From Gaiellaceae bacterium (GTDB taxonomy: Bacteria; Actinomycetota; Thermoleophilia; Gaiellales; Gaiellaceae): a stretch of DNA of 64,000 bases. The stretch is from contig DASTQA010000051.1 of assembly GCA_035762005.1 (NCBI GenBank), positions 633 to 64,632 of the forward strand, written 5' to 3'. Position numbers and translations under genes: made by a program. Positions 28,320 to 62,811 of this stretch are shown here, piece after piece (position 1 is the first letter of the stretch; each line of letters opens with the position of its first letter). The notes under the pieces are model-generated. The model had not been told where the DNA came from and made no database searches. It worked only from the letters and a program-made list of their open reading frames with translations.

Positions 28320-30416
28320 CTAGGAGCGCGGGCAGGCGCGCGCGTCCGGGCGGTACACGGGCTCGCCGGCGCGCACGCTGACGAAGCGGCCGCCCGCGCT
28401 GCCGGTCGAGGGGGCCGCGAAGGTCGCGCGCCAGACGCCTTCCGCGCACGCGGGGAACGAGACCGCGCGCGGCGCTCCCGGGGCGACGACGACCTCCTCC
28501 TCGACACCGCCGGGAAGCTCGAAGCTCACCGCCACGCGGGGTGAGCCCTCGGGCGCGGTCAGGCGGAAGGAGACGACGCCCGCGAGGCCGTCCGCCGGCG
28601 TGTCCGGCCAGACCCGGATCGTTCCGTGGAGACCGAGCCACCCGTCCGCGTAGCGCCCGTCGGCGTAGAGCGCGAGCCGCTGCGGTCCCCGGGAGCGGAC
28701 GAGGCGGTAGACGGGTGCCGAGGCGACCTCCTCGGAGTCTCGGAAGCGCAGCGTGTCGCTGAAGCCGTCGGCCACGAGCGGCCTCGTCACCGGCTTCCCC
28801 CCGGCGAGGAGCGTGCCGTCCGGGGCGATCGTGAGCCGTGTGGCCGCGAACGCGTCCGGAGGCTGGGCCCCGGGAAGCAGGTAGACGGCCTCGACCGAGC
28901 GGTTCCAGAAGAGGTACTCCGACGCGGTCCCGCGGTCGCTCGTCCTCGTCTGGAGCATGGCCGAGCCCTCCACCCCGGAGCGGTCGACGAACGAGGGCTG
29001 CGGCCCGAGAGTGTCCCGCCGGATCCGCTCGGCGTTCGTCAGCGTGAACGAGACGGCCGCGGCGGACACGGTCGCCGAGACGGCGAGCGCGAGCCCGAGC
29101 GCGACCGGCGTCGCCGTGCCAGGCCGGCGCGTCGTCGCGACGACGACCGCCAGGAGGAGCGTCACGCCGAGAGCGAGGACGAGCGAGGCGAGGCCGACGT
29201 CGCCGAGGAGCTGCTCGAGGCGCGCCATGGCGAAGAGCGTCGGCGCGCTCGTCTTCCCGTCGCCCGCCGCGTAGCCGGAGAGCGGGACGCGGGCGGCCAC
29301 GGCGACGAGGCCGGCGGCGAGGGCGCCGTGCGCGAGCCGGTGGGGCCAGCCGCGGGAGGCGTAGAGGGCGAAGGCGATGCCGACGAGCGGCACGGCGTAG
29401 AAGAAGTAGCGCTCCTGCACCCGGCCCTCGAGCCCGTACGCGGCCGCCTCGAGGACGAGCGCGACCACGATCGCCGCGGCGAGCGCCCCGAAGGCGAGCT
29501 CCTCCCGGGAGCGCGGACGCCGCAGCGCCAGCCAGAGCCCGAGCACGGCACCGGGCGCGAGGACGACCCCCGAGGCGTAGACGAGCATCATCGCGTCCAC
29601 GCCGACCCAGCGGGCCATGGCGACGGAGGCGACGTCGAGGTCGAGGACGCCCTCGTAGAAGCCGAGCGCGCGGCTGGGGCCGACGGCGAGGAGCGCGACG
29701 GCCGGGAGCGCGACGACCCCGACGGCGATCGCCTGCTCCCGCAGCGCGGCGCGCAGCCGCCGCTCCCGGAGGCCGACGGCGACGACGGCGGCGAGGAAGC
29801 AGAGCGGGAGGACGGCGAACTGGACGCGCGCGAACGCGGCGAGACCCGCCAGGGCGAGGAACCCGACCTGGGCTCGCCGGCCCGGTCGGGCGAGAGCGGC
29901 GACGCCCGCGAGCACGGCGGCGAGCGCGAGCGGGTAGGCGATCGGCTCGGCGAGGACGAACCCGCTGTAGAGGACGTCCGGCACGACCAGTGCGAGTGCC
30001 GCGAGGACGAGGGCGAGCCTCGATCCGAGTCCGACGCGGCGGGCGAGGAGGAAGACGGGGACCGCGGCGAGCGACATGAGCAGCGCCCCGAGCGTCTGGA
30101 CGATCCGGAAGGACGTCTCGACGTCGTCGACGAGCCAGGCAGGGGCCGTCAGGATCGGCTGCAGGAGCGCCGGGAAGTCGGCGGAGGCGTCGCGGACGAG
30201 CGGGCGCCCGCCCTCGACGAGCGTGCGGGCCAGCTCGGCGTAGATGTACTCGTCCGGGAAGAAGGTCGGCGTCGCGCGCAGCCAGGCGAGCCCGGCACGG
30301 AGGCCGAAGCTCGCGGCGACGAGGGCGGCGAGGGCCGGTGCGGCGCCGAGGCCGACGCGCGCGAGCACGGCTCGGCGCGCCTGCACCCGTGGCGTCGTGC
30401 GGGCGGCGACGGACAC
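28320..30416 (-). CDS. GT-C fold membrane glycosyltransferase (ArnT/PMT-like) with C-terminal extracytoplasmic domain
   Basis: 698 aa. FFPDEYIY motif in the first loop, about 11 TM helices, about 250-aa soluble C-terminus. Confidence 0.7.
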   Translation of the reverse strand: MSVAARTTPRVQARRAVLARVGLGAAPALAALVAASFGLRAGLAWLRATPTFFPDEYIYAELARTLVEGGRPLVRDASADFPALLQPILTAPAWLVDDVETSFRIVQTLGALLMSLAAVPVFLLARRVGLGSRLALVLAALALVVPDVLYSGFVLAEPIAYPLALAAVLAGVAALARPGRRAQVGFLALAGLAAFARVQFAVLPLCFLAAVVAVGLRERRLRAALREQAIAVGVVALPAVALLAVGPSRALGFYEGVLDLDVASVAMARWVGVDAMMLVYASGVVLAPGAVLGLWLALRRPRSREELAFGALAAAIVVALVLEAAAYGLEGRVQERYFFYAVPLVGIAFALYASRGWPHRLAHGALAAGLVAVAARVPLSGYAAGDGKTSAPTLFAMARLEQLLGDVGLASLVLALGVTLLLAVVVATTRRPGTATPVALGLALAVSATVSAAAVSFTLTNAERIRRDTLGPQPSFVDRSGVEGSAMLQTRTSDRGTASEYLFWNRSVEAVYLLPGAQPPDAFAATRLTIAPDGTLLAGGKPVTRPLVADGFSDTLRFRDSEEVASAPVYRLVRSRGPQRLALYADGRYADGWLGLHGTIRVWPDTPADGLAGVVSFRLTAPEGSPRVAVSFELPGGVEEEVVVAPGAPRAVSFPACAEGVWRATFAAPSTGSAGGRFVSVRAGEPVYRPDARACPRS

Positions 30417-30546
30417 GGTGTCTCTATCGGCGGCCCGCGGGCGAGCGTTAGCGCGAGACGCGTCCGTCCGGAGGCCCCGGCCGGGCCCGGCCGCCGAGGC
30501 CGGCTCTTACGATTCCGTCATGATCCGCGCGCCACGCGCGTGGAGC

Positions 30547-35061: not shown

Positions 35062-35071
35062 GCGGTCGGTC

Positions 35072-35099
35072 TTGACCTTTGCTGCGAGGATGCCGATGG
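35072..35099 (+). promoter_or_regulatory. sigma-28-type promoter candidate (TTGA-N16-GCCGATGG)
   Basis: The box ends 7 nt upstream of ATG 35107, which implies a leaderless or near-leaderless mRNA. Confidence 0.4.
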
Positions 35100-35106
35100 A
35101 AGGGGC

Positions 35107-36012
35107 ATGGCGGCCCGACTGACCATGCTCCTGCCCAGGCTCGCGGCGCTCGTCGTGATCTGGCTGCTCGCGGCCGCGAGCTTCACGTTCGCGGCCGGGG
35201 GCGAGGAGCCCGTCCCGAGCGCCGGCGAGGCTGCTGCCGGACCGGAGAGGCCGGAGGCGCTCGTCGTGCCCGACGTCCGCCGCCAGGCCTACGTCTTCGC
35301 CAAGGGCATCCTCCAGGACGCCGGCTTCGCCTGGCGCGTCGAGGGGCCGGTCGACGGCTACTCCGCGAACACGGTCGCCGTCCAGACCCCCGCGCCGGGC
35401 GCGAAGGTCGTCGACAACGGTGCCCCGACGATCGTCCTCCGCCTCGAGCGGAACGGCGACTACCCCGAGCGCGGCCTGCCCGAGAACCGCTCGCGGGGCG
35501 GGGGCACGCCGGTCGTCCTCCTCCGCGACTGGCTGCGCGCCCATCCGTCGGTCCCCGCCGCCGAGACCGAGGCCATGGAGACCGCTCCCGCCGAGACCGC
35601 GCCCGCGCCGACGACGACCGAGGCGCCGCCCGCGACGACCGAGGCGCCGCCCGCGACGACCGCGGCGGAGCCGCCGCCGGCCCCCGACGACGAGCAGGCC
35701 TACCGCCGCCCCGCCTTCGAGGTCGAGGGGGCTCCGCGCGAGCCGGCCGACGAGATGCCGCTCCCCGAGCGGGCCCGCATGCTCGAGCGCCGGCTGCTCG
35801 GCGCCGGGAAGCCCGGCAGGAGCCTCGTTCGCTTCTGGCTCTACCAGCACTCCTGGATCGTCACCGGCGCCCGCTTCGGGTGGAAGGACGGAGACGACGC
35901 GCTCCGGATCCTCGTCCGCCTCGACGAGCGCCTCGAGCGGCGCTACGGCTTCGGCGGCAAGAGCGCCGTGACCGCGCGCCGCGCGCTCGCGGACGTCCGC
36001 AGGCTGGGCTGA
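35107..36012 (+). CDS. membrane-anchored PASTA-domain protein
   Basis: N-terminal TM/signal sequence. PASTA-like unit VPDVRRQAYVFAKGILQDAGF...VVDNGAPTIVLRL. Pro/Thr/Ala linker with a tandem repeat. Conserved-looking C-terminal domain. Confidence 0.65.
   Translation: MAARLTMLLPRLAALVVIWLLAAASFTFAAGGEEPVPSAGEAAAGPERPEALVVPDVRRQAYVFAKGILQDAGFAWRVEGPVDGYSANTVAVQTPAPGAKVVDNGAPTIVLRLERNGDYPERGLPENRSRGGGTPVVLLRDWLRAHPSVPAAETEAMETAPAETAPAPTTTEAPPATTEAPPATTAAEPPPAPDDEQAYRRPAFEVEGAPREPADEMPLPERARMLERRLLGAGKPGRSLVRFWLYQHSWIVTGARFGWKDGDDALRILVRLDERLERRYGFGGKSAVTARRALADVRRLG
35614..35661 (+). repeat. 21-bp tandem repeat (2.3 copies) inside the PASTA-protein linker
   Basis: ACGACCGAGGCGCCGCCCGCG occurs twice exactly, then partially. 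Encodes TTEAPPATTEAPPATT. Confidence 0.85.
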
Positions 36013-36590: not shown

Positions 36591-36608
36591 GCGGAGCGGA
36601 CCGACGAC

Positions 36609-38105
36609 ATGACCTTGCGGCAACTCCTCACACGCCAGGACGGCATGACGCTCATCATGGCGGTGGGCATCCTCGGCATGCTCTCGCTGACGGGCGCGAC
36701 GCTCATCTACTACTCGAGCACGAACGCGCGCAGCGTCGAGTACTCCGTGCGCAACGCGAGCGCCTACGACCTCGCCGAGGCCGGCATCGACGAGATGATG
36801 GCGGTGCTCTCGAAGCCGACGAACAACGCGCTCCTGCCCGACGTCCTGCCGGAGACGACGCACGAGTACGACAGCGGGACGGTCACGTGGTCGGGCACGC
36901 TCGACCAGCTCACGCAGACGTGGTCGCTCACCTCGACGGGGAGGATCGACAACCCGACCGGGACGGCGACGAGCGACGTCACGCGCACGCTGACCGCGAA
37001 GGTGCCGGTGACGCCGACGCTCACCCAGCCGCTCAACAACCCGGCGTGGAACTACATCTACGCGACGAGCACGGGCCAGCCGTGCGACATGACGGTCGCC
37101 CAGAACGTCTCGGGCTCCTCGCGCCTCTACGTCGAGGGCAATCTCTGCCTGGAGAACAACGTCGCGATCACGCAGACGTCGCTCCTCGTCAAGGGCAACC
37201 TCGACCTCGCGAACAACGCGCGCGTCGGCGCCGCGACGAGCATGAGCACCCGCGTCGAGACCTACGTGGGCGGCAGCTGCCGCTACGGCGGCGGCTCGTG
37301 GGCGACCCCGTGCAGCGGGAACCAGGACGCCCGGCGCATCTACTCGAAGATGGGCGCTCCCGACTACACGGTCGGCGTCAACACCTCTGTCCCCGTCATC
37401 GCCGCGCCCTCGGCCGACGTCTCGGCTTGGTACGCGAACTCCATCCCGGGCCCCTCGCTCGATTGCAGCTCGGCCAACGGCGCCCGCAGCGGCACGCCGC
37501 CGACGTGGGACAACGACGGCGTCCGCAACAACAGCGTGCCGCTGTTCGAGCTGACCGCCGCCTCCTCGTACACCTGCCGCGTCGGGCCGGCCAACAACCC
37601 GACGGGCGAGCTCTCGTGGAACGCGGCGACGAAGGTGCTGACCGTGTACGGCACGATGTTCATCGACGGCAGCCTCACGATCACGAACGGGACCCTCAAC
37701 TCCTACAACGGCCAGGCGACGATCTACCTCTCCGGGACGCTCTACCTCGGGAACAACACGAAGCTCTGCGGCGGCGTCTCGGGCTCGAGCTGCGACTTCG
37801 GGGCCTGGAACCCGAACACGGAGATGCTCACGTTCGTGACCGGCGGGAGCGGCGGGCTCGCGGGGACCGACGTGGGGATCCTCGTCGCGAACAACGGCCA
37901 GTTCCAGGGCGGCCTCTTCTCGCAGTACGCGGTCCGCTTCACGAACAACTCGCGCTCGGACGGGCCGATCGTCGGCTCGACGATGATCTTCGACAACAAC
38001 GTCACGAACGACCAGTTCCCGACCATCACGACGGTGCCGGTCGGCATGCCGGGCAACCCGGCCGTCTACGCCCAGCCGAACCCGCCGCAGCTCTACAGCG
38101 GCTAA
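36609..38105 (+). CDS. PilX-N-terminal-like pilus-associated protein with large Asn/Thr/Gly-rich beta-helix-like domain
   Basis: N-terminus QDGMTLIMAVGILGMLSLTGATLIYY. Repeats of the GNLxLxNN type. Visibly lower GC and Asn-rich compared with its neighbours. Confidence 0.7.
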   Translation: MTLRQLLTRQDGMTLIMAVGILGMLSLTGATLIYYSSTNARSVEYSVRNASAYDLAEAGIDEMMAVLSKPTNNALLPDVLPETTHEYDSGTVTWSGTLDQLTQTWSLTSTGRIDNPTGTATSDVTRTLTAKVPVTPTLTQPLNNPAWNYIYATSTGQPCDMTVAQNVSGSSRLYVEGNLCLENNVAITQTSLLVKGNLDLANNARVGAATSMSTRVETYVGGSCRYGGGSWATPCSGNQDARRIYSKMGAPDYTVGVNTSVPVIAAPSADVSAWYANSIPGPSLDCSSANGARSGTPPTWDNDGVRNNSVPLFELTAASSYTCRVGPANNPTGELSWNAATKVLTVYGTMFIDGSLTITNGTLNSYNGQATIYLSGTLYLGNNTKLCGGVSGSSCDFGAWNPNTEMLTFVTGGSGGLAGTDVGILVANNGQFQGGLFSQYAVRFTNNSRSDGPIVGSTMIFDNNVTNDQFPTITTVPVGMPGNPAVYAQPNPPQLYSG

Positions 38106-50871: not shown

Positions 50872-51111
50872 GCGGCGGGCGGCCGGCCCCGCGGCGGGCG
50901 GTCGGCGACCGGCGGGGTGGTGGGGCAATGACTGCGCGAGCTCGACCTCTCCCTGCACGAGACCTTTCGAGTTCCCGTCTGCCCACCTGAGCGGGCAGTA
51001 AGGGACGCGGCTATGATCAACGAGCTCGCACGCGCGATGAGGCTCGCGCCTAACCGCCCGCAGGGCTGATGGCCTCTACCCCAGTCGAACGGTCTCGTCC
51101 GGGAGGTAGAG

Positions 51112-52281
51112 GTGAGCGAGCTTGCGATTGCTGTAGTGCTGGCGGGGGCGATCCTGCTTGCCTCGACGATCTCGATCGAGCTCGGCATCTCGGTCGCGCT
51201 CGTGGAGCTGGCCCTGGGGGTCGTGGTCGGGAACGCGTTCGACGTCGGCGTGCCCGCATGGCTGGTCTTCATCGGCTCGTTCGCGGGGATCGTCCTCACG
51301 TTCCTGGCCGGCGCGGAGGTCGACGTCGATCAGTTCCGGCGGGAGTGGCGGGCGAGCCTCGGTATCGGGGTCGTCTCGTTCGCGGCGCCCTTCCTCGTCT
51401 GCACGGCGTTCGCCTACTGGGCGCTGGACTGGTCTGCGGACGCCGCCAAGATCGCGGGCATCGCGCTCTCGACGACGAGCCTCGCGGTCGTCTACTCGGT
51501 GCTGGTCGAGACCGGGCTGAACCAGACCGCGATCGGGCGGCGAATCATGTCGGCCACGTTCGTGACTGACTTCGGCACCGCGGCGGCGCTCTCCATCCTC
51601 TTCGTGACGCCGAGCCTCTGGATCATCGCGTTCGCCGCCGTCTCCGCCTCGCTGATCCTCGGGTTGCCGCGGCTCTCGCCCTGGTTCTTCGGCCGCTACG
51701 GCAACCGGGTGATCGAGCCGGAGATCAAGCTCGTCTTCTTCGCGCTCTTCCTCCTCATGTGGCTCGGCGAGCGGTCGAACTCGCACGCCGTCCTCCCGGC
51801 GTTCGTGCTCGGGCTGGCGCTGAGCTCGCACTACGCGACCCACCGCAAGGAGCAGGAGCGGATGCGAGTCGTCGCCTTCGCGTTCCTCACGCCGCTGTTC
51901 TTCTTCAAGGGCGGGATGAACGTGTCGGCGGCGGCGCTCTGGGCGAACCTCGGCGTGCTGGGCCTCCTGTTCGCGGCCAAGATGGTTCCCAAGCTCGCCG
52001 GCGTCTACCCGCTCGCCCGCCGTTACTGCGCGCCGCACGCCGCCTTCACGACGCTGCTGATGTCGACGGGCCTGACGTTCGGGACGATCAGCTCGCTGTT
52101 CGGCCTCCAGGCCGGGATCGTCGACGAGACGCAGTTCTCGCTCCTCGTCGCCGTCGTCGTCCTCTCCGCGATCGTGCCGACGGTGATCGCGCAGCGCCTG
52201 TTCCAGCCGACCGCCGCCGCGGAGCACGCGCGCGAGCGGGCGCTTGCGGTCGCCGAGCCGGTGCGGGAGGCTGAGCGCTGA
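51112..52281 (+). CDS. cation:proton antiporter (CPA family)
   Basis: 389 aa, about 11 TM helices. N-terminal region typical of Na+/H+ exchanger-type proteins. GTG start. Confidence 0.8.
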   Translation: MSELAIAVVLAGAILLASTISIELGISVALVELALGVVVGNAFDVGVPAWLVFIGSFAGIVLTFLAGAEVDVDQFRREWRASLGIGVVSFAAPFLVCTAFAYWALDWSADAAKIAGIALSTTSLAVVYSVLVETGLNQTAIGRRIMSATFVTDFGTAAALSILFVTPSLWIIAFAAVSASLILGLPRLSPWFFGRYGNRVIEPEIKLVFFALFLLMWLGERSNSHAVLPAFVLGLALSSHYATHRKEQERMRVVAFAFLTPLFFFKGGMNVSAAALWANLGVLGLLFAAKMVPKLAGVYPLARRYCAPHAAFTTLLMSTGLTFGTISSLFGLQAGIVDETQFSLLVAVVVLSAIVPTVIAQRLFQPTAAAEHARERALAVAEPVREAER

Positions 52282-52283
52282 CG

Positions 52284-52706
52284 ATGCCGTTCGAGCGGAT
52301 TCTGGTTGCGATCGACGGCTCCGAGGCCTCTGACCGCGCGTTCGACAAGGCGCTCGAGCTCACCGCCCTCACCGGTGCCACGCTGGCGGCGCTCGCCGTC
52401 GAAGGGCCGCTGCCCGCCTACGCCGCCACCGTCGGCGAGGTCGAGGAGGTCAAGCGCGAGAAGGACGCCTTCTTCAGTCGCCTGCTCACCGCCGCCGAAG
52501 AGAAGGCAGCAGCCTCCGGCGTCGCGCTCGAGACCGAGCTTCGGCCCGGTCACGCCGCCGAGTTGATCGTCCGCGTCGCCGGCGAGTGGCGCGCAGACCT
52601 GATCGTGCTCGGCCACAAGGGCCACTTCCTGCGCGACCACCTGCTCGGATCCACCGCCGACCGCGTCACCGAGCACGCCGACTGTCCTGTCATGATCGTG
52701 CGGTAG
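52284..52706 (+). CDS. universal stress protein
   Basis: 140 aa. ILVAIDGSEAS...LIVLGHKGH...GSTADRVTEHADCPVMIV. Confidence 0.85.
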   Translation: MPFERILVAIDGSEASDRAFDKALELTALTGATLAALAVEGPLPAYAATVGEVEEVKREKDAFFSRLLTAAEEKAAASGVALETELRPGHAAELIVRVAGEWRADLIVLGHKGHFLRDHLLGSTADRVTEHADCPVMIVR

Positions 52707-52803: not shown

Positions 52804-54609
52804 CTAGGCGGCCTCGTCCACAGTGAAGCTGAACATCATCCCGCTCTCGTGGTGCTCGGCGATGTGGCAGTGGGCCATCCAGCGGCCGGGGTTCGTGACG
52901 TCGAGGAGGATGTCGACCGTCTCGCCCGTGCGCACGAGGACCGTGTCCTTCCAGACGAGGTTCGGCTCGGGGACGCCGTCGCGGGCGAGGACGAGGAAGC
53001 GGCCCGCCCCGTGCACGTGGAACGGATGGGGCATGGGGTGGTCGGAGTCCAGCTCGTTCACGAGGCGGATCTTCACGCGCTCCCCCACCCGGAGCCGCCA
53101 GTCGATGGCGGCATTCTCCGCGCCCGTCGCCCGGTCGATGAGCTTCCAGCGCATGTTCTCCGCCGTCGTCATGCGGTTCACCTCGACCATGTCGTCCTCC
53201 CACTCGAGCCCTCCCGCCGGCCCGGGCTCGTGGGCCTCGTGCCCGTGCTCGTGGGCCTCGTGCCCGTGCTCGTGGTGGCCGTGGCCGTGCTCCCCGTCGT
53301 GGCCGTGCTCCCCGTGCTCGTGGCCGCCTGCCGCGCCACCGACCACTGCCGCCGGCAGGAGCTTCATGCCGCACCTCGGGCAGCGCCCCGGCTCCTCGCT
53401 GACGACTTCGGGGTGCATGGGGCAGGCGTAGCCCACCGGCGTGGGCGCCGCGCTGGCCAGGAGCTTCATGCCGCACTTCGGGCAGCGCCCGGGCTCCTCG
53501 CTCACGACCTCCGGGTGCATGGGGCAGGCATAGACCACGGGGCCGCCTCCCTCCGGCGCGCCGAGGTCCATCTCGGCGACGAAGGCGAGCGTCTTGTCGG
53601 GGGCCGCGTTGAGGTACGGCTCGAGCCGCCGGCGCTCGGCCGCCAGGTCGTCGTTCGTCCGCAGCGCCTCGAACCGCTCGGCGACCGCCGGCTCCGCCCG
53701 TTCCTCGCCCACGGCGATCGTCGCGAGCCGGTACGAGCGGTCCGGCGTCCGGTGCTCCATCCTCACCTCGCCCGGCTCGGCGAAGAGCGCGTCGACGACG
53801 ACCCGCTCCGACGGCGCCAGCAGGACCTCCTCGACGAACGCCTCGTGCTCGTAGTGGCCGCTGTCGCCGCCCACGAGCTTCATGCGGACGCCGGGGAGGG
53901 TCACGTTGAAGACCCGGGTGTTGGCCGTGTTCGTGAGGTAGAAGCGCACGACCTCGCCTGCGCGGGCCGCGAGCGTGAGATCCGTCTCCCCGGCGACGAG
54001 CATGACGTTGCCGAAGCGGCCCATCGCTGCGTAGGTCGTCTCGGAGCGGCTGAAGGGCGCGATGCGGCCGTCCTCGAGGAGGACGTCGTCGAGCGTGAGC
54101 AGGACCTCGCGGTGGGCCGGCGGCCAGTACCCGGAGTCGGCCGGGACGACGAGGATGTTGCCATAGAGGCCGAGCTCCTGGCCGTAGTCCTCGCGGATGT
54201 GCGGGTGGTACCAGTAGGCGCCGGGGTCGGGCACGTGCACCTGGTACGAGAAGGTCTCGCCCACGGGGATGGGCGCCTGCGTGTCGTGCGTCCCGTCGTA
54301 GCGGTTCTCGAGGCGCAGCCCGTGCCAGTGGACCGTCGCCTCGAGGTCGCCGCGGTTCGTGACTTCGACCGTCACGGTCGCGCCCTCGGGGACCCGCAGC
54401 GTCGGGCCGGGGATCGAGCCGTTGTAGGCGAGCATCCGGACGGTCGCGTCGCCCAGCCGCTTGGCGACGGGGGCGATCTCGAGGCCGTAGGAATCGCCGT
54501 CCGCGAGCTCGACGACCTCCGCCGGAGCCGCCTCCGGCAAGCCCTCGATCTCCGTCGGCATCCGGTCGGCCGGCTCCGCGTGCGCGTCGTGCGCGTGGTG
54601 GTCATGCAT
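52804..54609 (-). CDS. three-domain multicopper oxidase with two inserted heavy-metal-binding modules and His-rich tracts
   Basis: Start MHDHHAHDAH. Copper-site motifs HWHG, WYHPH, HPFHVHG, HCHIAEHHESGM. Between domains 2 and 3 lie 2 copies of YACPMHPEVVSEEPGRCP(K/R)CGMKLL plus GGHEHGEHGHDGEHGHGHHEHGHEAHEHGHEAHE. Confidence 0.85.
   Translation of the reverse strand: MHDHHAHDAHAEPADRMPTEIEGLPEAAPAEVVELADGDSYGLEIAPVAKRLGDATVRMLAYNGSIPGPTLRVPEGATVTVEVTNRGDLEATVHWHGLRLENRYDGTHDTQAPIPVGETFSYQVHVPDPGAYWYHPHIREDYGQELGLYGNILVVPADSGYWPPAHREVLLTLDDVLLEDGRIAPFSRSETTYAAMGRFGNVMLVAGETDLTLAARAGEVVRFYLTNTANTRVFNVTLPGVRMKLVGGDSGHYEHEAFVEEVLLAPSERVVVDALFAEPGEVRMEHRTPDRSYRLATIAVGEERAEPAVAERFEALRTNDDLAAERRRLEPYLNAAPDKTLAFVAEMDLGAPEGGGPVVYACPMHPEVVSEEPGRCPKCGMKLLASAAPTPVGYACPMHPEVVSEEPGRCPRCGMKLLPAAVVGGAAGGHEHGEHGHDGEHGHGHHEHGHEAHEHGHEAHEPGPAGGLEWEDDMVEVNRMTTAENMRWKLIDRATGAENAAIDWRLRVGERVKIRLVNELDSDHPMPHPFHVHGAGRFLVLARDGVPEPNLVWKDTVLVRTGETVDILLDVTNPGRWMAHCHIAEHHESGMMFSFTVDEAA
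53356..53532 (-). repeat. 102-bp tandem duplication within the MCO gene (encodes the two metal-binding modules)
   Basis: Units 53356-53430 and 53458-53532 are near-identical at the DNA level, with a handful of substitutions. Confidence 0.8.
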
Positions 54610-55753
54610 CTCGAGCTCCTTCCCGGGGGGTCGCGGACGCCGGCTCGGCCCGGTCGGCGCGCTGCCGGGAGCGCGCGTCGATCTCCGCGGCAATGTACTC
54701 GGCGTCGTCCTTCACCCAGCCGAGGAGGGCCGAGCCGCGCGTGTGCTGCCACTCGAGGCCGAGGACGTAGAGGCCGGGCACCTCCGTGACCCCGCGCCGC
54801 TGGCGGACGCGGCCGTCGGCGCCCGCGACGGAGGGCTCGATCCACGAGTGGTCGGTGCGGTACCCGGTCGCCCAGACGACGCCGTCGACGTCCAGCTCGG
54901 TCCCGTCGGCGAACGTCACCGTACGGCCGGAGACGGCCGTCACGCGGGGCCGCAGCTCGACCCCGGTGCGGCGGATGCCGCGGGGGCTCGAGCCGATGAG
55001 CGGCGAGCCGCGCGCCTCGAGGCGCCGCCCGAGGCGGGTGTCGATCCCCTTCCGCAGCACGCCCAGCTTCGTGAGCCACCAGAAGAGGTCCTTCCCGAGC
55101 ACCCGCTGCGGGAACGGCGTCTGCCGCGAGCCGATCGCGAGGTGGACGCGGCGCGAGGCGGCGAGCTCCTCGGCGATCTGGAAGCCGGTGTTGCCTCCGC
55201 CCACGACGAGGATCGTCCCCTCCGGGAGATCGTCGGGCCTGCGGTAGCCCGTGCTGTGCATCTGCACGACCTCCGCTGCGAGCCCGCCGGCGAACGGCGG
55301 CACGAACGGCGTCTGGAACGGGCCGGTGGCGACGACGACCTGGTCGGAGGTGACGGCGCGGCCGTCGACCTCGAGACGGAAGCCGTCGTCCGCCGCCGCG
55401 AGGTCGTGCACGGGGCTCTCGAGCTCGACCGGCAGCTCGAACGTCTCCGCGTAGCGCTCGAGGTAGGCGATCACCTCGTCGCGCCCAGGGTAGCCCTCCG
55501 GGTCGCCGGGGAAGGGCAGCCCGGGGAGGCTGTCGTAGCGGCGGGGCGTGAAGAGCGTCAGGGAGTCCCACCGCTCGCGCCAGGCGGCGCCGAGGGAGCT
55601 CGCGAGCTCGAGGATCACGAATCGCCGCCCCTGGCCCGCGAGGAAGTACCCCATCGCCAGCCCCGCCTGGCCGGCCCCGACGACGACGACGTCGTAGCTC
55701 GACTCGGGCGGCGACGTGGACTTGGGGTTCGTGGGCTCGTCCCTCGCGAACAT
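54602..55753 (-). CDS. FAD/NAD(P)-binding flavoprotein (CzcO-like / flavin monooxygenase-like)
   Basis: DVVVVGAGQAGLA and LVVGGGNTGFQIA dinucleotide motifs, plus ATGY. Its stop overlaps the MCO start by 8 nt. Confidence 0.75.
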   Translation of the reverse strand: MFARDEPTNPKSTSPPESSYDVVVVGAGQAGLAMGYFLAGQGRRFVILELASSLGAAWRERWDSLTLFTPRRYDSLPGLPFPGDPEGYPGRDEVIAYLERYAETFELPVELESPVHDLAAADDGFRLEVDGRAVTSDQVVVATGPFQTPFVPPFAGGLAAEVVQMHSTGYRRPDDLPEGTILVVGGGNTGFQIAEELAASRRVHLAIGSRQTPFPQRVLGKDLFWWLTKLGVLRKGIDTRLGRRLEARGSPLIGSSPRGIRRTGVELRPRVTAVSGRTVTFADGTELDVDGVVWATGYRTDHSWIEPSVAGADGRVRQRRGVTEVPGLYVLGLEWQHTRGSALLGWVKDDAEYIAAEIDARSRQRADRAEPASATPREGARDA

Positions 55754-55905
55754 CCGGCTCGACTGGCGCGGCCCGGCAGCTCCGGGCCGGGATCGACAGG
55801 TCGAGCCTAGCCCGATCGCGCCGCGGGCAAACACGGGCGGCGGCGGCTTCCCGTTTGCGCCCGCGCGCGCCGGGACATGCGAAGGGAAAGACGAAGGGAG
55901 CCCTG

Positions 55906-56277
55906 ATGACCCACCACACTGCGGAGCACCAAACGGTGCTCCAGAACGTCGGCGAGGAGATGCGCCGCTGCATCGAGGAGTGCACGACCTGCCACGAGGT
56001 CTGCCTCGCGACCGTCGCGCACTGCCTGGAGGCGGGCGGCGAGCACGCCGAGGCCGCGCACGTCCGGCTGCTCCTCGACTGCGCCCAGATCTGCGCGACG
56101 AGCGCGGACTTCATGCTCCGCGGCTCCGAGCTCCACGGCGAGACCTGCGGCGCCTGCGCCGTCGTCTGCGAGCGCTGTGCAGAGTCCTGCGAGCGCTTCG
56201 CCGACGACGAGGTCATGTCGGCCTGCGCGGACGTGTGCCGCCGCTGCGCCGAGTCGTGCCGGCGCATGGCCGCCTAG
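55906..56277 (+). CDS. Cys-rich four-helix-bundle copper-binding protein (DUF326-like)
   Basis: ATG at 55906 with SD GAAGGGAG. 123 aa with repeated CxxxC/CxxC spacing (CIEECTTCHEVC...CAQIC...CGACAVVCERCAESC...CADVCRRCAESC). Confidence 0.75.
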   Translation: MTHHTAEHQTVLQNVGEEMRRCIEECTTCHEVCLATVAHCLEAGGEHAEAAHVRLLLDCAQICATSADFMLRGSELHGETCGACAVVCERCAESCERFADDEVMSACADVCRRCAESCRRMAA

Positions 56278-56344: not shown

Positions 56345-57130
56345 TCACGGTCGCGCCTTATACGCCCGCACCGTCGTCCCGTGGGCCCCGTACTTGATCG
56401 CCTTCTCGCGCGTGTCCGGGAACGCCGAGCGCGCGTAGGTGGCGACGAGGTTGCCGGACTCGATTCGATCGAATCCGTGTCTCGCGAGCAGCTCTGCGTA
56501 CTCCGCCTCCAGCAGAGCGCCGGCGATTCAGCCGGTCCACAGGTCGATCTTCCGCCGGCCTTCCTCGCTCACCGGGCGCTGGATCGTCACGTCGGCGACC
56601 TGGATCCGGCCCCCGGGCAGGAGGACCCGCTGGAGCTCGGAGAAGACCGCGTCCTTGTCCGGGACGAGGTCGATGACGCCGTTCGAGATCACGACCTCGA
56701 AGCTCTCGTCCGGGAAGGGCAGCCGTTCCGCCTCGCCCTCGACGAACTCGACGTGTCCGACGCCGAGCGAGGCGGCCGCCGCGCGCGCCTTGGCGAGCAT
56801 CTCGGGCGTCATGTCGATGCCGGTGACCCGGCCGGAGGCGCCGACCATCTGCGCGGCGACGAGCGAGTCGGTCCCGGAGCCGCTTCCGAGGTCGAGGACC
56901 CGCTCGCCGGGCTGCAGGCGCCCGAGCGAGAACGGGTTGGCGACGCCCGCGAAGGACTCGACCGCCCCGTCGGGGACCGAGGCGAGCTCCGGCGGGTAGT
57001 CGAGGTCCTCGGCCCAGGCGCGCCCGGTCGGGAAGATGAAGTCCTTCTCCGGCTCGGCGGAGACGGTCGCGTACGTCTTCCTGATCTCGCGCTTCAGGAG
57101 CCCGACGTCGAGCTCGAGCCCGCTCGTCAT
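56345..57130 (-). CDS. ArsM-like SAM-dependent methyltransferase interrupted by one in-frame TGA (56528-56530): candidate selenoprotein or nonsense pseudogene
   Basis: Track ORF 56528..57130 ends DLWTG-TGA. The same frame continues IAGALLEAEYAELLARHGF... for 60 more codons to TGA at 56345. It aligns colinearly with the in-window ArsM (GDFVGCIAGALSRGEYEAGLEAAGF). SAM motif VLDLGSGSG. Confidence 0.6.
56491..56518 (-). other. SECIS-like hairpin 9 nt downstream of the in-frame UGA
   Basis: Minus-strand RNA UGA-AUCGCCGGC-GCUCUGC-UGGAGGCGGAGUAC-GCAGAGC. Perfect 7-bp stem and 14-nt G-rich loop. The loop starts 16 nt after the UGA. Confidence 0.4.
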
Positions 57131-58884
57131 GCGCCCCGGCCCACGGGGGTGTGCCGTCCGGGGGGAGGCTCGGGCGGCGAGGGCGGCTGCCGCCGGTCCG
57201 CGGCGCGGCCCGGCGACCGTCGCTCGGGCGGGCCCATCCCCGGTCGTCCGGGGGGCTCGGGGAGCTCACGCGCGCCCTCCACCGGGAGGCCGGCCGCCTT
57301 CCAGGCGGCGAACCCGCCCGCCAGGTCGGTCGCGCGACTGCACCCGAGCTCGCGGAGGGCCGCGGCCGCCAGGCTCGAGGAGTAGCCCTCGGCGCAGAAG
57401 ACGACGAGCCGTGCGTCCAGGCCGCCCAGGTGCGGGTTCGCGTAGCCCGAGTCAGGGTCGACGCGCCACTCGAGGACCGAGCGGGGAACGTGGACCGAGC
57501 CCGGCACGACGCCTTCCCGGCGCCGCTCGTCGTGCGAGCGGAGGTCGACGAGGACGGCGCCGTCGGTCATGGCCTCGAAGGCCTCCCGCGGCTCGAGGCG
57601 GGGCGCGATGCGGCCGCGCGCGTCCGCGAGCAGGTCGGCGATGGTGCGGCGCGCGGGGCGGGGGTGGCGGGCCCAGCCCGTCGCGGCGACCCAGAGCCCG
57701 CTCGCGGCCGTGAGGCCGGCGACGACCGCGATGGCGGGGCCGGCTCCCAGCGAGTCCGCGACGACGCCGACGAGGAGCGCTCCCACGACGAACCCGAAGT
57801 CGCGCCAGAACCGGTAGACGCCGACGAGCTGGGCGCGCTCCACCGGCCGGGAGACGTCCGAGACGGCCGCGATGAGCGTCGGGTAGACGAGCGCCGTGCC
57901 GAGCCCGAGGAGCGCCGCCGCCGCGAGGGCCGGGCCGAACGCGCCGCCTCCCGCGACGAGGAGCGCGAGCGCGCCGCCCTGCACGAGCATGCCGGCGACG
58001 ATCGGCGGCTTACGCCCGATGTGGTCCGAGAGCCAGCCCGTGGCGAGCTGGCCCGCTCCCCAGACGGCCGGATAGACGCCGGCGACGGCGCCCACCTCGG
58101 CCACGCTCGCCCCGTTCGCCGCCAGGTAGAGGGGGACGAGGCCCCAGGCGAGGGCGTCGTTCAGGTTGTTGACGAGCCCCGCCTGCGAGCAGGCACGGAG
58201 GACCGGGTCGCGCAGGGTTCCGCGGACGAACGCGAGCGCGAGGCTGCCAGCGGGCGCCGTCCCGTGCGCACGCTGCTCCTCACCGACGTGAGCGCCGGTG
58301 TCGCGGACGAAGAGGAGCGAGACGACGAGGCCGATGAGGGCGACGGCCGCGCCTCCGGCCCAGACAAGCGTCCGCGGCGCGACCGTCGCGGCGAGCGCTC
58401 CCGTGGCGAGCGCCGTGGCGGCGACGCCGAGGTAGCCGGCCGACTCGTTGAGGCCGAGCGCGAGGCCGCGGCGGACGGGACCGACGAGGTCGATCTTCAT
58501 GACGACCGTCATCGACCAGGCGAGCCCCTGGTTCAGTCCGAGGAAGACGTTCGCGACGACGACGACCCACCAGCTCGGTGCAAGTCCGATGAGGAGTGGA
58601 ACCGGCAGCGCGAAGGCCCAGCCGAGGACGAGCAGCCGCTTCCTGCCGACGCGCTCCGCGAGCCCGCCCGCCGCGAGGTTCGCGAGCGCCTTCGCGATGC
58701 CGAACGCGACGACGAACGAGAGGATGGCGCTCTTCGACGCGAGCCCGAACTCCTCTTCCCCGACGAGGGGCAGGACGCTCCGCTCGAGGCCGACCATCGC
58801 GCCGACGAAGGCGTTGAGGGCGACGAGGAGCGCGAACTGGCGGGCGTTCGCCCGCAGCCCGAGGCGCACGGCGGCCACGGTCAC
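57127..58884 (-). CDS. MFS transporter fused to a C-terminal rhodanese domain
   Basis: About 400 aa with 12 TM helices, then LVDLRSHDERR...VVFCAEGYSSS...GGFAAWKAAGLP (rhodanese active-site Cys loop). Its stop overlaps the methyltransferase start (ATGA). Confidence 0.8.
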   Translation of the reverse strand: MTVAAVRLGLRANARQFALLVALNAFVGAMVGLERSVLPLVGEEEFGLASKSAILSFVVAFGIAKALANLAAGGLAERVGRKRLLVLGWAFALPVPLLIGLAPSWWVVVVANVFLGLNQGLAWSMTVVMKIDLVGPVRRGLALGLNESAGYLGVAATALATGALAATVAPRTLVWAGGAAVALIGLVVSLLFVRDTGAHVGEEQRAHGTAPAGSLALAFVRGTLRDPVLRACSQAGLVNNLNDALAWGLVPLYLAANGASVAEVGAVAGVYPAVWGAGQLATGWLSDHIGRKPPIVAGMLVQGGALALLVAGGGAFGPALAAAALLGLGTALVYPTLIAAVSDVSRPVERAQLVGVYRFWRDFGFVVGALLVGVVADSLGAGPAIAVVAGLTAASGLWVAATGWARHPRPARRTIADLLADARGRIAPRLEPREAFEAMTDGAVLVDLRSHDERRREGVVPGSVHVPRSVLEWRVDPDSGYANPHLGGLDARLVVFCAEGYSSSLAAAALRELGCSRATDLAGGFAAWKAAGLPVEGARELPEPPGRPGMGPPERRSPGRAADRRQPPSPPEPPPGRHTPVGRGA

Positions 58885-59636
58885 GGCCGTGCCGGGGTGA
58901 GGCCGCCCCGGTTGGCGGCGACGATCGCCGCCTGGTCGGGAGGCGCCGGGGGGACGCCGACGAGGAGCGCGCGCGCGAAGCTCTCCTCGTCCTCGTGGCC
59001 GAGCGCCGGGTTGTGGCGGCGCTCGAAGCCGATCGAGGAGAACGGGTTCGCCGACAGCCCCCGGCCGCAGACGGAGCCGCCGAAGTGGCTCGGGTAGACG
59101 AGGACGTGATCCGGGAGCTCGAGCAGCCGGCCGAGGGAGCGAGAGAGGCGGCGGGCGAGCGGCGCGGCGTCGCCGTCTGCATGGAGGTCGGGACGGCCGA
59201 CGTCTCCGACGAGCAGCGAGTCGCCGGTGAAAACGAGCCAGGGCTCGTCCGTCCCGCGCCGGCGGTCGGAGACGACGTACGCATGGTGAGCGGGCGCGTG
59301 GCCGGGTGTGGCGAGCGCGCGCACGACGGTGTTGCCGAGCTCGACGACCTCGCCGTCGGCGAGGGGCTCGTGGGCGAACCGGACGCCGGCGTCCGCCGGG
59401 AGGTACGCGGTCGCTCCGGTCGCGTCGACGAGCCCGGGGAGCCCGGAGACGTGGTCTGCCTGGACGTGCGTCTCGAAGACGGCGACGATCCGACCGCCGG
59501 CCCGCTCGGCCGCCTCGAGGTAGCGCTCGACGAGCTCGGCGTGCGGGTCGACGACCGCGAGCGACGCCCGGGAGAGGCAGCCGAAGAGGAAGCTCGCGCA
59601 GGCAGTCTTCTCGTAGAGGAACGGGCGCAGGAGCAT
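58881..59636 (-). CDS. MBL-fold metallo-hydrolase (persulfide-dioxygenase-like)
   Basis: THVQADHVSG (HxHxDH motif), ATPGHAPAH, FTGDSLLVGDVGRPDL. Its stop overlaps the downstream MFS-rhodanese start. Confidence 0.8.
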   Translation of the reverse strand: MLLRPFLYEKTACASFLFGCLSRASLAVVDPHAELVERYLEAAERAGGRIVAVFETHVQADHVSGLPGLVDATGATAYLPADAGVRFAHEPLADGEVVELGNTVVRALATPGHAPAHHAYVVSDRRRGTDEPWLVFTGDSLLVGDVGRPDLHADGDAAPLARRLSRSLGRLLELPDHVLVYPSHFGGSVCGRGLSANPFSSIGFERRHNPALGHEDEESFARALLVGVPPAPPDQAAIVAANRGGLTPARP

Positions 59637-59693: not shown

Positions 59694-60656
59694 ATGGCTG
59701 CTATCGCCGTGGCCGATAGCTCACTCTCGCTCCTCTGGGACTGGAATCGCCTGCGGCTCCTCGTCGAGCTCGGCCGCCGGGGCAGCGTCTCCGCGGCCGC
59801 GCGGGCGGTCGGGATCGGCCAGCCGAGCGCGAGCGAGCACCTGCGGCTCCTCGAGGCCGCGGCCGGGCAGCGCCTCCTCGAGCGAAACGGCCGTGGAAGC
59901 CGCTTGACCGAGGCCGGCCGGATCCTCGCGGCGCACGCGAGCCAGGCGCTCGCGACGCTCGCCGCCGGCGAAGAGGAGCTGCATGCCCTCGCCGGGCTCG
60001 AGTCCGGGACGGTTCACATCGGCGCCTCGACGACGCCCGGCGTCTACCTGCTGCCGGACACGCTCGGCTGCTTCCGGCGCGACCACCCGAACGTCACGGT
60101 CGAGGTCGAGATCGCCTCCACCGGCGAGATCGTCGAGCGGCTGCTGGCCGGAGGGATCCAGCTCGCCCTCGTCGGCGAGACCGCCGCGGACGGGCGCCTC
60201 GAGCTCGAGCCGTTCCTCTCCGACGAGATCGTCGGGATCGCCAGGCCCGGCCTGCTGGAGCTCCGCGACGGGAGCGCGAGCCCAGAGGCGCTCGCGACGC
60301 AGACGCTCCTCGTGCGCGAGGCGCGCTCGAGCACGCGTCAGGTCGCGGAGCGCGCGCTGCGCGCGGCGGGCGTCGAGCCGCAGAGGCGCTGGGAGCTCGA
60401 CTCGAGCGAGGCGATCAAGCGGGCGGTCCGCGAGGGCCTGGGCGTCGCCTTCCTCTCCCGCTACGCCGTCGCCGAGGAGGTCGAGCGCGGCGAGCTCGAG
60501 ACCTTCCGCCTCGCCGGCGGGCCGAGCATCGAGCGCCGCCTCCTCGTCGCCCGTCGTGCCGGCCGTCCGCAGAGCCCGAGCGAGCGCGGGTTCGTGGCGA
60601 CGCTGACGCGCTGCTGTGCGAAGAGCGCCGACTACGCCGCCGCCTGCGTCGCGTGA
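59694..60656 (+). CDS. LysR family transcriptional regulator
   Basis: N-terminal wHTH (GSVSAAARAVGIGQPSASEHLRLLE) and a LysR substrate-binding domain. Divergent from the MBL operon. Confidence 0.85.
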   Translation: MAAIAVADSSLSLLWDWNRLRLLVELGRRGSVSAAARAVGIGQPSASEHLRLLEAAAGQRLLERNGRGSRLTEAGRILAAHASQALATLAAGEEELHALAGLESGTVHIGASTTPGVYLLPDTLGCFRRDHPNVTVEVEIASTGEIVERLLAGGIQLALVGETAADGRLELEPFLSDEIVGIARPGLLELRDGSASPEALATQTLLVREARSSTRQVAERALRAAGVEPQRRWELDSSEAIKRAVREGLGVAFLSRYAVAEEVERGELETFRLAGGPSIERRLLVARRAGRPQSPSERGFVATLTRCCAKSADYAAACVA

Positions 60657-60657
60657 C

Positions 60658-61352
60658 GTGACGCCGGTCCTCGACCCGGAGGGCGCGCATCTCGCCTCGC
60701 TGCGGCGACTGGCTCGCTTCGAGGGCGCCTCCGTGCTCGAGGTCGGCTGCGGCGACGGCCGGCTGACGGGGGGCATCGCCGAGGAGGCGGCGTCCGTCCT
60801 CGCCTTCGACCCCGACGGCGACGCGGTCGCGGCGGCCCGGGCGGGGCTGCGGGCTGAGCTCGCCGGGCGCGTGACCTTCCGTGTCGGCGCCGCGTCGGAG
60901 ATCGAGATCCCGCGCTCGGAGTTCGACTTCGTCGTCTTCTCCTGGTCGCTCTGATGAATGGCGCCCGAGGACGTCGTGCACGTCCTGCGCCGCTCCAGGG
61001 AGGCGCTCGTCCCCGCGGGGACGATCCTCGACCTGCAGGTGATCGGCCCGACCCGGTCGTCGAGGCCGACGGCGGCGTCCTCTGCGAGATCGACGGCGCC
61101 CCGCTCTTCGCCACCGCCGACTCGGCGGTCGCAGCCGTCGACGCGCTCGTGGCGGAGGGGCTCCTCGTCGAGGAGGCCGTCAACGACCACGACGTGCGCA
61201 AGCACTACTCGTCCGGTCCCGAGCTCGTCCGCGACCTCGCCCCCAAGGCGCGGAGCCTCCCCGCCGAGGCGATCCCCCTCCTCGAGTCCCTCGAGCGCGA
61301 GTGCGTCGTGCGGGAGCGCTGCCGCCTGCGGCGGCTGCGGCGCGTCGGCTAG
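60658..61352 (+). pseudogene. class I SAM-methyltransferase, disrupted (tandem in-frame TGA TGA plus a frameshift)
   Basis: VLEVGCGDGRL...FDFVVFSWSL-TGA-TGA-MAPEDVVHVLRRSREALVPAGTILDL in one frame. Credible sequence then continues in another frame (DPVVEADGGVLCEIDGAPLF...), switching near 61040-61050. Confidence 0.6.
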
Positions 61353-61636: not shown

Positions 61637-61993
61637 ATGATGCTCGTCGATATGAACACCCTCGACCCCGTTGCCTGCTGCCGGCCGCTCGCGGCGCCCT
61701 CGCTCACGGACTCCGAGGCCGAGGCGACCGCGGCGCTCTTCAAGGCGCTCGGCGACCCGGCCCGGGTCCGGATCCTGAACCTGCTCGCGACGAGCGAGGA
61801 GCCCGTCTGCGCGTGCGAGTTCATCCCCGCCCTCGGCCTCTCGCAGGCGACGGTCAGCCACCACCTGAAGAGGCTGACCGACGCCGGGCTGCTCGAGCGC
61901 GAGCAGCGCGGGAAGTGGGCCTTCTTCTCCATCGACCCGGAGGCCTCGGCGCGGCTCGCCGACCTCGTCCAGATCCCGGAGGTTTCACGATGA
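61637..61993 (+). CDS. arsR: ArsR/SmtB family metalloregulator
   Basis: LFKALGDPARVRILNLL...CACEF...LSQATVSHHLKRL. Alternative starts at 61640 and 61652. Confidence 0.85.
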   Translation: MMLVDMNTLDPVACCRPLAAPSLTDSEAEATAALFKALGDPARVRILNLLATSEEPVCACEFIPALGLSQATVSHHLKRLTDAGLLEREQRGKWAFFSIDPEASARLADLVQIPEVSR

Positions 61994-62811
61994 GCACCGA
62001 CACTGCCGACACCCTGCGCGAGGCTGTCCGCCGCCGCTACGCCGAGGCCGCCCAGGAGGTCGCCCAGGGCACGGGCGTCGGCTGCGGCAGCGGGTCCTGC
62101 TGCGCCGAGAGCGCGAGCGCCGACTTCGGCGAGTCCCTCTACTCGAGCGAGCAGCGGGGCGAGCTCCCCGACCCCGCCGCGCTGGCGAGCCTCGGCTGCG
62201 GCAACCCGACCGCGGTCGCCGACCTCCACGAGGGCGAGGTGGTGCTCGACCTCGGCTCCGGCGGAGGCATCGACGTCATCCTCTCCGCCCGCCGGGTGGG
62301 GCCGACCGGGACCGTGTACGGGCTCGACATGACCGACGAGATGCTCGCCCTCGCCCGCCGGAACGCGCAGGAGGCCGGCGTGACGAACGTCCACTTCCTC
62401 AAGGGCGTGATCGAGGCAGTGCCGCTGCCGGCGGACGCGGTGGACGTCGTCATCTCGAACTGCGTCGTCAACCTCTCGGTCGACAAGGCGGCCGTGCTCG
62501 CGGAGGTCGCGCGGGTGCTGAGGCCGGGCGGGCGGCTCGGGATCAGCGACGTCGTCGCCGAGGACCGGCTCTCGCCCGCGGAGCGGGCCGAGCGCGGCGA
62601 CTTCGTCGGCTGCATCGCCGGCGCTCTCTCGCGGGGCGAGTACGAGGCCGGCCTCGAGGCGGCGGGCTTCGAGGACGTCTCCGTCGAGTTCACGCACGAG
62701 GTCGCCGACGGCATGCACGGGGCGGTCGTCAGCGGGCGGAAGGCCGCCGCGGCGGCCGGTGCGGCGCCGCGCGCGCTGCCGCTCGCCCGGCCCGGCGTCG
62801 GCTGCTGCTGA
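61990..62811 (+). CDS. arsM: arsenite S-adenosylmethionine methyltransferase
   Basis: ATG overlaps the arsR stop. Conserved Cys sites GSGSCC, LGCGNP and VGCIAGAL. SAM motif VLDLGSGGG. Confidence 0.85.
   Translation: MSTDTADTLREAVRRRYAEAAQEVAQGTGVGCGSGSCCAESASADFGESLYSSEQRGELPDPAALASLGCGNPTAVADLHEGEVVLDLGSGGGIDVILSARRVGPTGTVYGLDMTDEMLALARRNAQEAGVTNVHFLKGVIEAVPLPADAVDVVISNCVVNLSVDKAAVLAEVARVLRPGGRLGISDVVAEDRLSPAERAERGDFVGCIAGALSRGEYEAGLEAAGFEDVSVEFTHEVADGMHGAVVSGRKAAAAAGAAPRALPLARPGVGCC

Follow-up and report, generated by a model that had tools for sequence, protein, structure and literature searches.

A probable selenocysteine codon in an ArsM-like methyltransferase gene of a Gaiellaceae bacterium, in a persulfide-type operon

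Arsenite methyltransferases with selenocysteine (Sec) have been described before. In Table 1 of a 2026 review of prokaryotic selenoproteomes (PMC13188914), the entry "Arsenite methyltransferase, NF008823, UxxG" counts as a selenoprotein with experimental verification, for which Fomenko et al. 2007 (Science 315:387) is cited. The table further includes three double-Sec families from Haft & Tolstoy 2025, which share that UxxG motif. An ArsM selenoprotein is also mentioned by Zhang & Gladyshev 2008, and Peng et al. 2016 (PMC5029168) found an arsenite methyltransferase selenoprotein in 39 organisms. Here we analyse a gene of this lineage with an in-frame TGA codon, located in a stretch of 64,000 nucleotides from a Gaiellaceae bacterium (assembly GCA_035762005.1, contig DASTQA010000051.1; "the window" hereafter, always at its full length). 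We propose that TGA 56530-56528 is very probably a Sec codon and that the gene encodes a 261-residue S-adenosylmethionine (SAM) methyltransferase of the ArsM/AS3MT lineage, as judged from comparison of related loci.

The gene starts with ATG at 57130-57128. Its upstream open reading frame (ORF; 57130..56528, minus strand) comprises 200 codons and is closed by the in-frame TGA. Past this codon the same frame stays open for 60 further codons (IAGALLEAEY...RAYKARP; IAGALLEAEYAELLARHGFDRIESGNLVATYARSAFPDTREKAIKYGAHGTTVRAYKARP), up to the true stop TGA at 56347-56345. When the first TGA is read as residue 201, the conceptual full-length product has 261 residues, the peptide spanning the recoded position is IDLWTG-U-IAGALLEAEYAELLAR, and Sec sits in the motif D-L-W-T-G-U-I-A-G. 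The principal features are as follows.

56345..57130, minus strand: methyltransferase gene (ORFs; NCBIfam, Pfam and PDB matches; codon-position periodicity before and after the TGA)
56528..56530, minus strand: UGA, probable Sec codon of residue 201 (TGA in 75/77 loci; alignment to Cys224 of CmArsM)
56500..56518, minus strand: hairpin of the Sec insertion sequence (SECIS) type (pairing conservation and covariation; -9.5 kcal/mol)
56491..56497, minus strand: alternative 3' arm GCAGAGC of a hairpin with a 14-nt loop, competing in this genome alone for the 5' arm of the SECIS-type hairpin

The closest described relative is the UxxG arsenite methyltransferase selenoprotein. Our gene resembles it in belonging to the ArsM/AS3MT lineage and in its presumed Sec in U-x-x-G (here U-I-A-G) at the column of Cys224 (CmArsM numbering throughout), followed here by a downstream hairpin. 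In contrast to it, the clade of our gene scores below the NF008823 cutoff, has Val or Thr and Gly at the positions of Cys72 and Cys174, and is found, in Gaiellales and further lineages from soil, within an operon of the persulfide-dioxygenase/rhodanese kind; catalogued members are compared here as they are described.

The three double-Sec families, insofar as the tabulated entries describe them, have the same UxxG site, and their models score best among curated ones for the methyltransferase domain: NF041537 (ArsM/AhpD, 236 bits), NF047649 (methyltransferase/UXPK-star, 222 bits) and NF041536 (ArsM/DUF2284, 216 bits). The clade nevertheless stays far below the respective cutoffs (510, 460 and 575 bits) and is without a second domain, second Sec or U-x-P-K tail. 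A hidden second Sec of the UXPK-star kind at the C-terminus was considered and rejected, because terminal stops are variable (TGA, TAG, TAA; proteins end at about 255-265 residues) and neither a conserved U-x-P-K tail nor a second in-frame TGA motif is present.

The presumed recoding mechanism is standard and the UxxG Sec site has been catalogued since 2007. Left uncovered by curated models is the single-domain, single-Sec clade that has no other cysteines of the ArsM set and is truncated in public annotation. Our main finding extends a known kind of selenoprotein and opens no new one. A literature search returned nothing relevant on selenocysteine in Gaiella, and the papers on BSepDB and deep-Sep mention neither the family nor the taxon.

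Conservation of the UGA, its downstream frame and the hairpin

Related loci were collected with one genome per species, which gave 80 loci, 77 of which cover the UGA column. TGA is present in 75 of these 77, and the remaining two, L076 (Nitriliruptoraceae) and L079 (Limnocylindrales), have TGC for Cys. The TGA-bearing loci span Gaiellales, Thermoleophilia, Acidimicrobiia, Acidobacteriota, Chloroflexota, Dormibacterota, Eisenbacteria and Proteobacteria, and the codon is kept down to about 47% protein identity. One of the loci carrying the gene, L013, lies on the complete Gaiellaceae chromosome OY969104.1. When the conceptual 261-residue product served as query against protein databases, the source gene itself came back (P0001, 100% identical), which is called at 200 aa and titled [quoted passage not shown]. 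Among the top 120 clusters, all distinct, a length of exactly 200 aa is seen in 107, at 80-86% identity; independent assemblies therefore halt at the same codon. More than 100 clusters, the NCBI entry for the window gene included, are cut in this way. Truncated public records bear only the name "methyltransferase domain-containing protein" and would lack the catalytic residue as well as the final quarter of the fold, in a lineage that is widespread in soil.

The sequence behind the TGA evolves as coding sequence. Among 47 close orthologues, diversity at codon positions 1, 2 and 3 is 0.148, 0.160 and 0.396 for the 52 codons after the TGA, and 0.134, 0.076 and 0.396 for the 50 codons before it. 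Stops in frame 0 of these 52 downstream codons occur in 0/47 loci, while the other two frames contain them in 25 and 10 loci. The periodicity and the missing frame-0 stops argue that the tail is translated in frame, and in-frame translation would exclude a recent nonsense mutation as well as a conserved true stop. Homology of the 60-codon extension to C-termini of ArsM is borne out by MAFFT alignment with the ArsM encoded at 61990-62811 of the window.

A few single metagenome contigs carry a sense codon at the UGA column (Arg in P0003, Leu in P0004). P0003 (L084, 940-942) is a full-length relative whose Arg codon AGA is one T>A change away from TGA and is followed by a perfect hairpin. Arg or Leu as an alternative state of the family was rejected on this account, the P0003 codon being one base from TGA with SECIS intact; sense codons at the Sec sites of P0003, P0004 and P0123 (the last a homologue of the second methyltransferase treated below) are probably recent variants or sequencing errors. 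As a separate observation, L016 and L017 are different contigs of one metagenome-assembled genome (MFD10007.bin.3.89), each with a TGA-containing copy of the methyltransferase gene, so that some genomes may possess two paralogues, or the bin may be mixed.

For analysis of the hairpin we aligned 48 nt around the codon from the 75 TGA-bearing loci, where columns 16-22 pair with columns 28-34. In the window, this corresponds to 5' arm GCUCUGC (56518-56512), loop UGGAG (56511-56507) and 3' arm GCGGAGU (56506-56500), i.e. 7 bp closed by a 5-nt loop, with the stem beginning 9 nt 3' of the UGA. The stem is paired in 97.8% of cells, compared with 86.1% in shuffles (0/500 shuffles reach the observed value) and only 24-49% in slid-register controls. 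Double-sided changes are found in 44 cells versus 9.5 in shuffles, and three pairs covary (CG/GC, UA/CG/GC and GC/CG). Several compensations join a synonymous change on one arm with an amino-acid change on the other, for example GCU>GCG (Ala) with GAG>GCG (Glu to Ala), and selection therefore acts on RNA. Apical loops read UGGAN or CGUGY across loci. In both TGC orthologues the hairpin is lost, with 3/7 pairs left in each.

The earlier note on this DNA, made from the letters of the window, had drawn a 7-bp hairpin GCUCUGC/GCAGAGC with a 14-nt loop at 56518-56491. Such a hairpin is present and represents the predicted minimum free energy fold of the local RNA, and its 5' arm was chosen correctly. 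The 3' arm was not: the 14-nt-loop pairing is formed in 56.3% of cells in orthologues, and shuffles do as well or better. The distances given there, 9 nt from the UGA to the stem and 16 nt to the loop, hold for both versions, and a hairpin is indeed conserved where TGA is conserved, in its 5-nt-loop version. On these comparative grounds the predicted SECIS element is the short 5-nt-loop hairpin rather than the 14-nt-loop one. Its position and size fit what we take to be usual for bacterial SECIS elements (fdhF, bSECISearch). Similarly to the SECIS of E. coli fdhF, it is a stem-loop that follows the UGA closely inside the coding sequence and has a small apical loop with G/U, and compensatory changes preserve its structure even where they alter the encoded peptide. 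The hairpin sequences themselves are unrelated, and binding of SelB here would be presumed by analogy.

Missing cysteines, operon and possible substrate

The product matches the class-I SAM-binding methyltransferase domain (Pfam Methyltransf_31 with 109 bits, Methyltransf_25, Methyltransf_11) and contains the SAM-binding motif D-L-G-S-G-S-G. Its best PDB matches are ArsM structures, namely ArsM of Chlamydomonas (5evj, E = 1e-31) and CmArsM (4fr0 and 5eg5). Alignment to these solved structures sets U against Cys224, Gly150 against Cys174 and Val63 against Cys72, which confirms the suggestion of the earlier note that the TGA stands for an As(III)-binding Cys. An AlphaFold2 model of P0003, built from an 8-sequence alignment, was discarded (mean predicted local distance difference test 41, predicted template-modelling score 0.34).

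The two other ArsM cysteines are missing from the whole family. All three columns, the TGA column included, hold Cys in the ArsM at 61990-62811, while our paralogue has V (AGVANP) and G (ISNGVIDL) at the two others. Among 77 family members, the Cys72 column contains V in 72 and T in 5, the Cys174 column G in 77/77, and the Cys224 column U in 74, C in 2 and R in 1 (the AGA variant). The window protein has zero cysteines. The presumed selenol is accordingly the only thiol or selenol of the ArsM set, as had been noticed from the single sequence.

A distant subclade shows another pattern, U-I-A-G-[AG]-L-P-C-A-G-W, with Cys seven residues after Sec in 15/77 members (L055, L060, L063-L067, L070-L073, L078, L080, L081 and L083; Acidimicrobiia, Chloroflexota, Proteobacteria and others). 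It is possible that this Cys serves as a selenenylsulfide partner, one without a counterpart in the Gaiellales clade.

Three genes overlap one after another, with the methyltransferase gene in last place. The stop of the preceding gene overlaps its ATG by 4 nt (ATGA), which suggests that both belong to one operon. Neighbouring genes are listed below.

57127..58884, minus strand: transporter of the major facilitator superfamily (MFS) with C-terminal rhodanese domain (Pfam MFS_1 and Rhodanese)
58881..59636, minus strand: metallo-beta-lactamase (MBL)-fold protein of persulfide-dioxygenase type, first gene of the operon (PDB matches)
59694..60656, plus strand: LysR-type regulator, divergent (NCBIfam)
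61640-62811, plus strand: ArsR and bona fide ArsM, the latter at 61990-62811 (NCBIfam)
55855-56277, plus strand: Csp1-like Cys-rich four-helix-bundle protein
54602-55834, minus strand: ArsO-like flavin monooxygenase
52807-54711, minus strand: multicopper oxidase with HMBD repeats

The best structural relatives of the MBL-fold protein are 3tp9 (E = 8e-51), 3r2u, BpPRF (5ve3-5) and ETHE1 (4chl and 2gcu), which represent persulfide dioxygenases and their rhodanese fusions. The best NCBIfam match of the LysR-type regulator is NF040786, "selenium metabolism-associated LysR", at 187.5 bits and under the cutoff of 250. Within 7 kb of the methyltransferase gene in related loci we counted MBL (33), MFS (29), DsrE-like (24), ArsR-rhodanese (21), LysR (13, in the same divergent position) and a second methyltransferase (13); DsrE-like, ArsR-rhodanese and other linked genes recur in loci of distant phyla. 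In the window, the putative selenoprotein operon is set inside a metal/metalloid stress island (52807-56277 and 61640-62811).

Binding of As(III) by canonical ArsM needs Cys174 together with Cys224. With Cys174 absent here, the substrate would be held by a single Se-X bond. We imagine that the single selenolate anchors a soft substrate through this bond beside the methyl group of SAM, and that the atom bound to the selenolate would then be methylated. Because the clade has no other ArsM cysteines, scores below cutoffs and resides in a persulfide-type operon, canonically bound As(III) is probably not its substrate. Our first candidate for X, put forward tentatively from gene neighbourhood and the missing cysteines, is a reactive sulfur or selenium species (sulfide, persulfide, selenide), which might yield a volatile or exportable methylated product. 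An arsenical that requires one ligand, for example dimethylated trivalent arsenic, DMAs(III), comes second among the candidates named here; it is unlikely, as is, to a slightly lesser degree, something else altogether. Arsenic genes (ArsR-ArsM and the ArsO-like monooxygenase), which are also near in the window, weigh against this proposal about the substrate.

The most serious competitor of this view is a canonical arsenite methyltransferase in which Sec replaces Cys224 and which methylates As(III) as ArsM does. Homology to ArsM speaks in its favour, as does the presence of the ArsR-ArsM pair and the ArsO-like monooxygenase within 6 kb in the window; moreover, seven related loci, and only these, have a second ArsM paralogue no more than 3 kb away (L009, L023, L029, L037, L071, L076, L079). 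Canonical ArsM enzymes (CmArsM 4fr0/4fs8/5eg5; Chlamydomonas 5evj) indeed share with our protein the fold family, the SAM motif and a chalcogen nucleophile at the Cys224 site. We nevertheless regard this explanation as improbable. Cys72 has become Val and Cys174, one of two As(III) ligands, has become Gly, with both equivalents lost in 77/77 members; there is no equivalent of the N-terminal Cys44, and the window protein has only its 261 residues and no ArsM C-terminal domain. The generic ArsM model NF008823 scores 215.2 bits against a cutoff of 263, compared to 292.8 for the true ArsM of the window. Finally, the neighbours kept across phyla are genes for persulfide dioxygenase, rhodanese and DsrE, not ars genes.

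A sulfur-related role would have a functional parallel in the H2S/methanethiol S-methyltransferases MddH, MddM1 and MddM2 (PMC11445057, PMC12904073), which are likewise small cytoplasmic class-I SAM methyltransferases and detoxify reactive sulfur species, including in Actinomycetota. MddH is found beside multicopper oxidase and metal-resistance genes, as is our gene in the window. These proteins belong to the UbiE/UbiG families, not to ArsM, and have no Sec, so the likeness is one of functional analogy only. With a selenolate as its presumed sole nucleophile and linkage to persulfide genes, the clade may offer a lead on selenium-dependent methylation of S, Se or As in soils.

Decoding of the UGA

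In a model taken over from E. coli fdhF, the UGA would enter the ribosomal A site, SelB-GTP carrying Sec-tRNA(Sec) would bind the apical loop, and Sec would be inserted instead of termination. The gene would then imply Sec use in Gaiellaceae. This reading, which the earlier note had offered as one of two, is favoured by the conserved TGA, the coding tail, the covarying hairpin and the UxxG proteins already catalogued.

Several observations weigh against it. Firstly, selA, selB, selD and tRNA-Sec were not found within the 64-kb window, nor any Sec machinery in the approximately 1.2 Mb of flanks of related loci. The window contains one tRNA (Tyr), and ARAGORN detected no tRNA-Sec in the window or 60 related loci. 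Searches by tblastn with approximate E. coli SelD and SelB queries gave a single GTPase-domain match (L083) in the window and all loci, a result that does not show genome-wide absence. Motif scans of all flanks for FdhA (U-H), SelD (U-x-x-K), UxxC and CxxU returned wrong-frame noise only. Secondly, the conserved stem carries one U.G wobble in this genome, and the non-conserved 14-nt-loop hairpin is predicted to be more stable (-11.4 vs -9.5 kcal/mol) and to dominate the ensemble in the window. The local fold energy is ordinary for a G+C-rich sequence (z = -0.26; 80/200 shuffles fold as well), and an Rfam search of the window found no SECIS family at gathering thresholds. Thirdly, the protein reaches the curated cutoff of no ArsM or selenoprotein model in NCBIfam.

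Among other ways to account for the UGA, read-through independent of SelB survives best, though we think it quite improbable. Here the hairpin would help a near-cognate tRNA (for Trp, Cys or Arg) to decode the UGA, or the lineage would have reassigned this codon, and no selenium would be involved. A hairpin alone cannot tell which tRNA decodes the codon, and the failure to find Sec machinery in window or flanks would suit this explanation. On the other hand, many ordinary ORFs of the window end in TGA, and the codon is therefore not reassigned genome-wide. The column pairs specifically with Cys in homologues, and the same UxxG site is catalogued as a Sec site in ArsM-type proteins. To this we add the presumed match of the hairpin in position and size to bacterial SECIS elements mentioned above.

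The UGA might also be a genuine conserved stop, in which case a truncated methyltransferase of 200 residues would be made and the last 60 codons would be untranslated or translated separately. All gene callers and NCBI call the 200-aa product, and the lack of Sec machinery in the window is in line with it. We hold this to be very improbable, since third-position periodicity of the tail equals that of the upstream part in the same frame, which is free of frame-0 stops; the two orthologues with Cys read straight through; past Cys224, the ArsM fold continues to align with the tail; and ORF inspection found no conserved start codon of its own for the tail.

The least credible explanation is a pseudogene in which TGA lately replaced a Cys codon: a 1-nt deletion in the neighbouring methyltransferase gene and variation of the UGA codon in single metagenome contigs (e.g. 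AGA in P0003) could be quoted for it, but presence of TGA in 75 of the 77 loci, each from a separate species, at identities as low as about 47%, a downstream frame intact under purifying selection in 47/47 close loci and the covarying hairpin kept just 3' of the UGA leave it hardly any room, and the earlier judgement that a recent nonsense mutation was "equally" likely does not stand.

A second methyltransferase and other parts of the window

Next to the LysR gene lies another class-I methyltransferase gene, here called MT2.

60658..61352, plus strand: MT2 methyltransferase gene, with UGA-UGA at 60952-60957 and hairpin at 60968-60986

MT2 had been considered "clearly decayed". Its in-frame stops turn out to be a conserved UGA-UGA/UGY dyad; the judgement is right inasmuch as the window copy has a 1-nt deletion. 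It is without one C near 61044 (GATCCGG in four orthologues) and its frame is shifted after ...LDLQVIGP, owing to a genuine inactivating deletion or else to a mistake in the assembly. The window sequence reads FSWSL-TGA-TGA-MAPEDVVHVL, and the motif across loci is FSWSL-U-U/C-V.PEDVV. The dyad was found in 11 species loci including the window (the others are L001 10786-11478, L004, L007, L010, L012, L024, L026, L027, L028 and L038), as TGA-TGA in 7 and TGA-TGC/TGT in 4. It aligns with Cys-Cys: full-length database homologues read SWSLCC, and P0123 reads SWSLRC.

A hairpin follows the dyad in MT2 as well. AGGACGU-CGUGC-ACGUCCU at 60968-60986 is paired in 98.7% of cells, versus 27-48% in slid registers, and a single sequence, L012, has double compensatory changes. 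In NCBIfam, the best match is CpaM (58 bits), the model for the MduS selenoprotein gives 38 where its cutoff is 380, and no curated model covers MT2. From the dyad and its hairpin, MT2 is probably a second, uncurated selenoprotein, and it may represent a new, undescribed selenoprotein family with adjacent Sec codons. No further convincing candidate emerged when the window was scanned for in-frame TGAs flanked by coding signal on either side; the scan is blind to the MT2 dyad, because the codon after the first TGA is also a stop.

We can imagine, though we think it unlikely, that the Sec-only ArsM-like clade and MT2 together constitute an undescribed selenium-dependent methylation module within the persulfide-dioxygenase/rhodanese/DsrE operon of Gaiellales, which are abundant Actinomycetota of soils, and of several other phyla. 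Such a module would act on reactive S/Se species or late arsenic intermediates via one Se-X bond, and not on canonically chelated As(III), with MT2 as a new family whose two adjacent UGAs would be decoded with one SECIS.

Elsewhere in the window, a fluoride riboswitch (Rfam RF01734, 39.6 bits) at 51024-51085 on the plus strand stands directly 5' of a gene of the Na+/H+-exchanger family (51070-52281, plus strand), which is followed by a gene for a universal stress protein (52275-52706). Three large ORFs with high G+C content at third codon positions and no Pfam match (36591-38105 and 35062-36012 on the plus strand, 28323-30506 on the minus strand) adjoin a type IV pilus cluster with PilB-like ATPases, PilC, PilM, PilN and prepilin peptidase.

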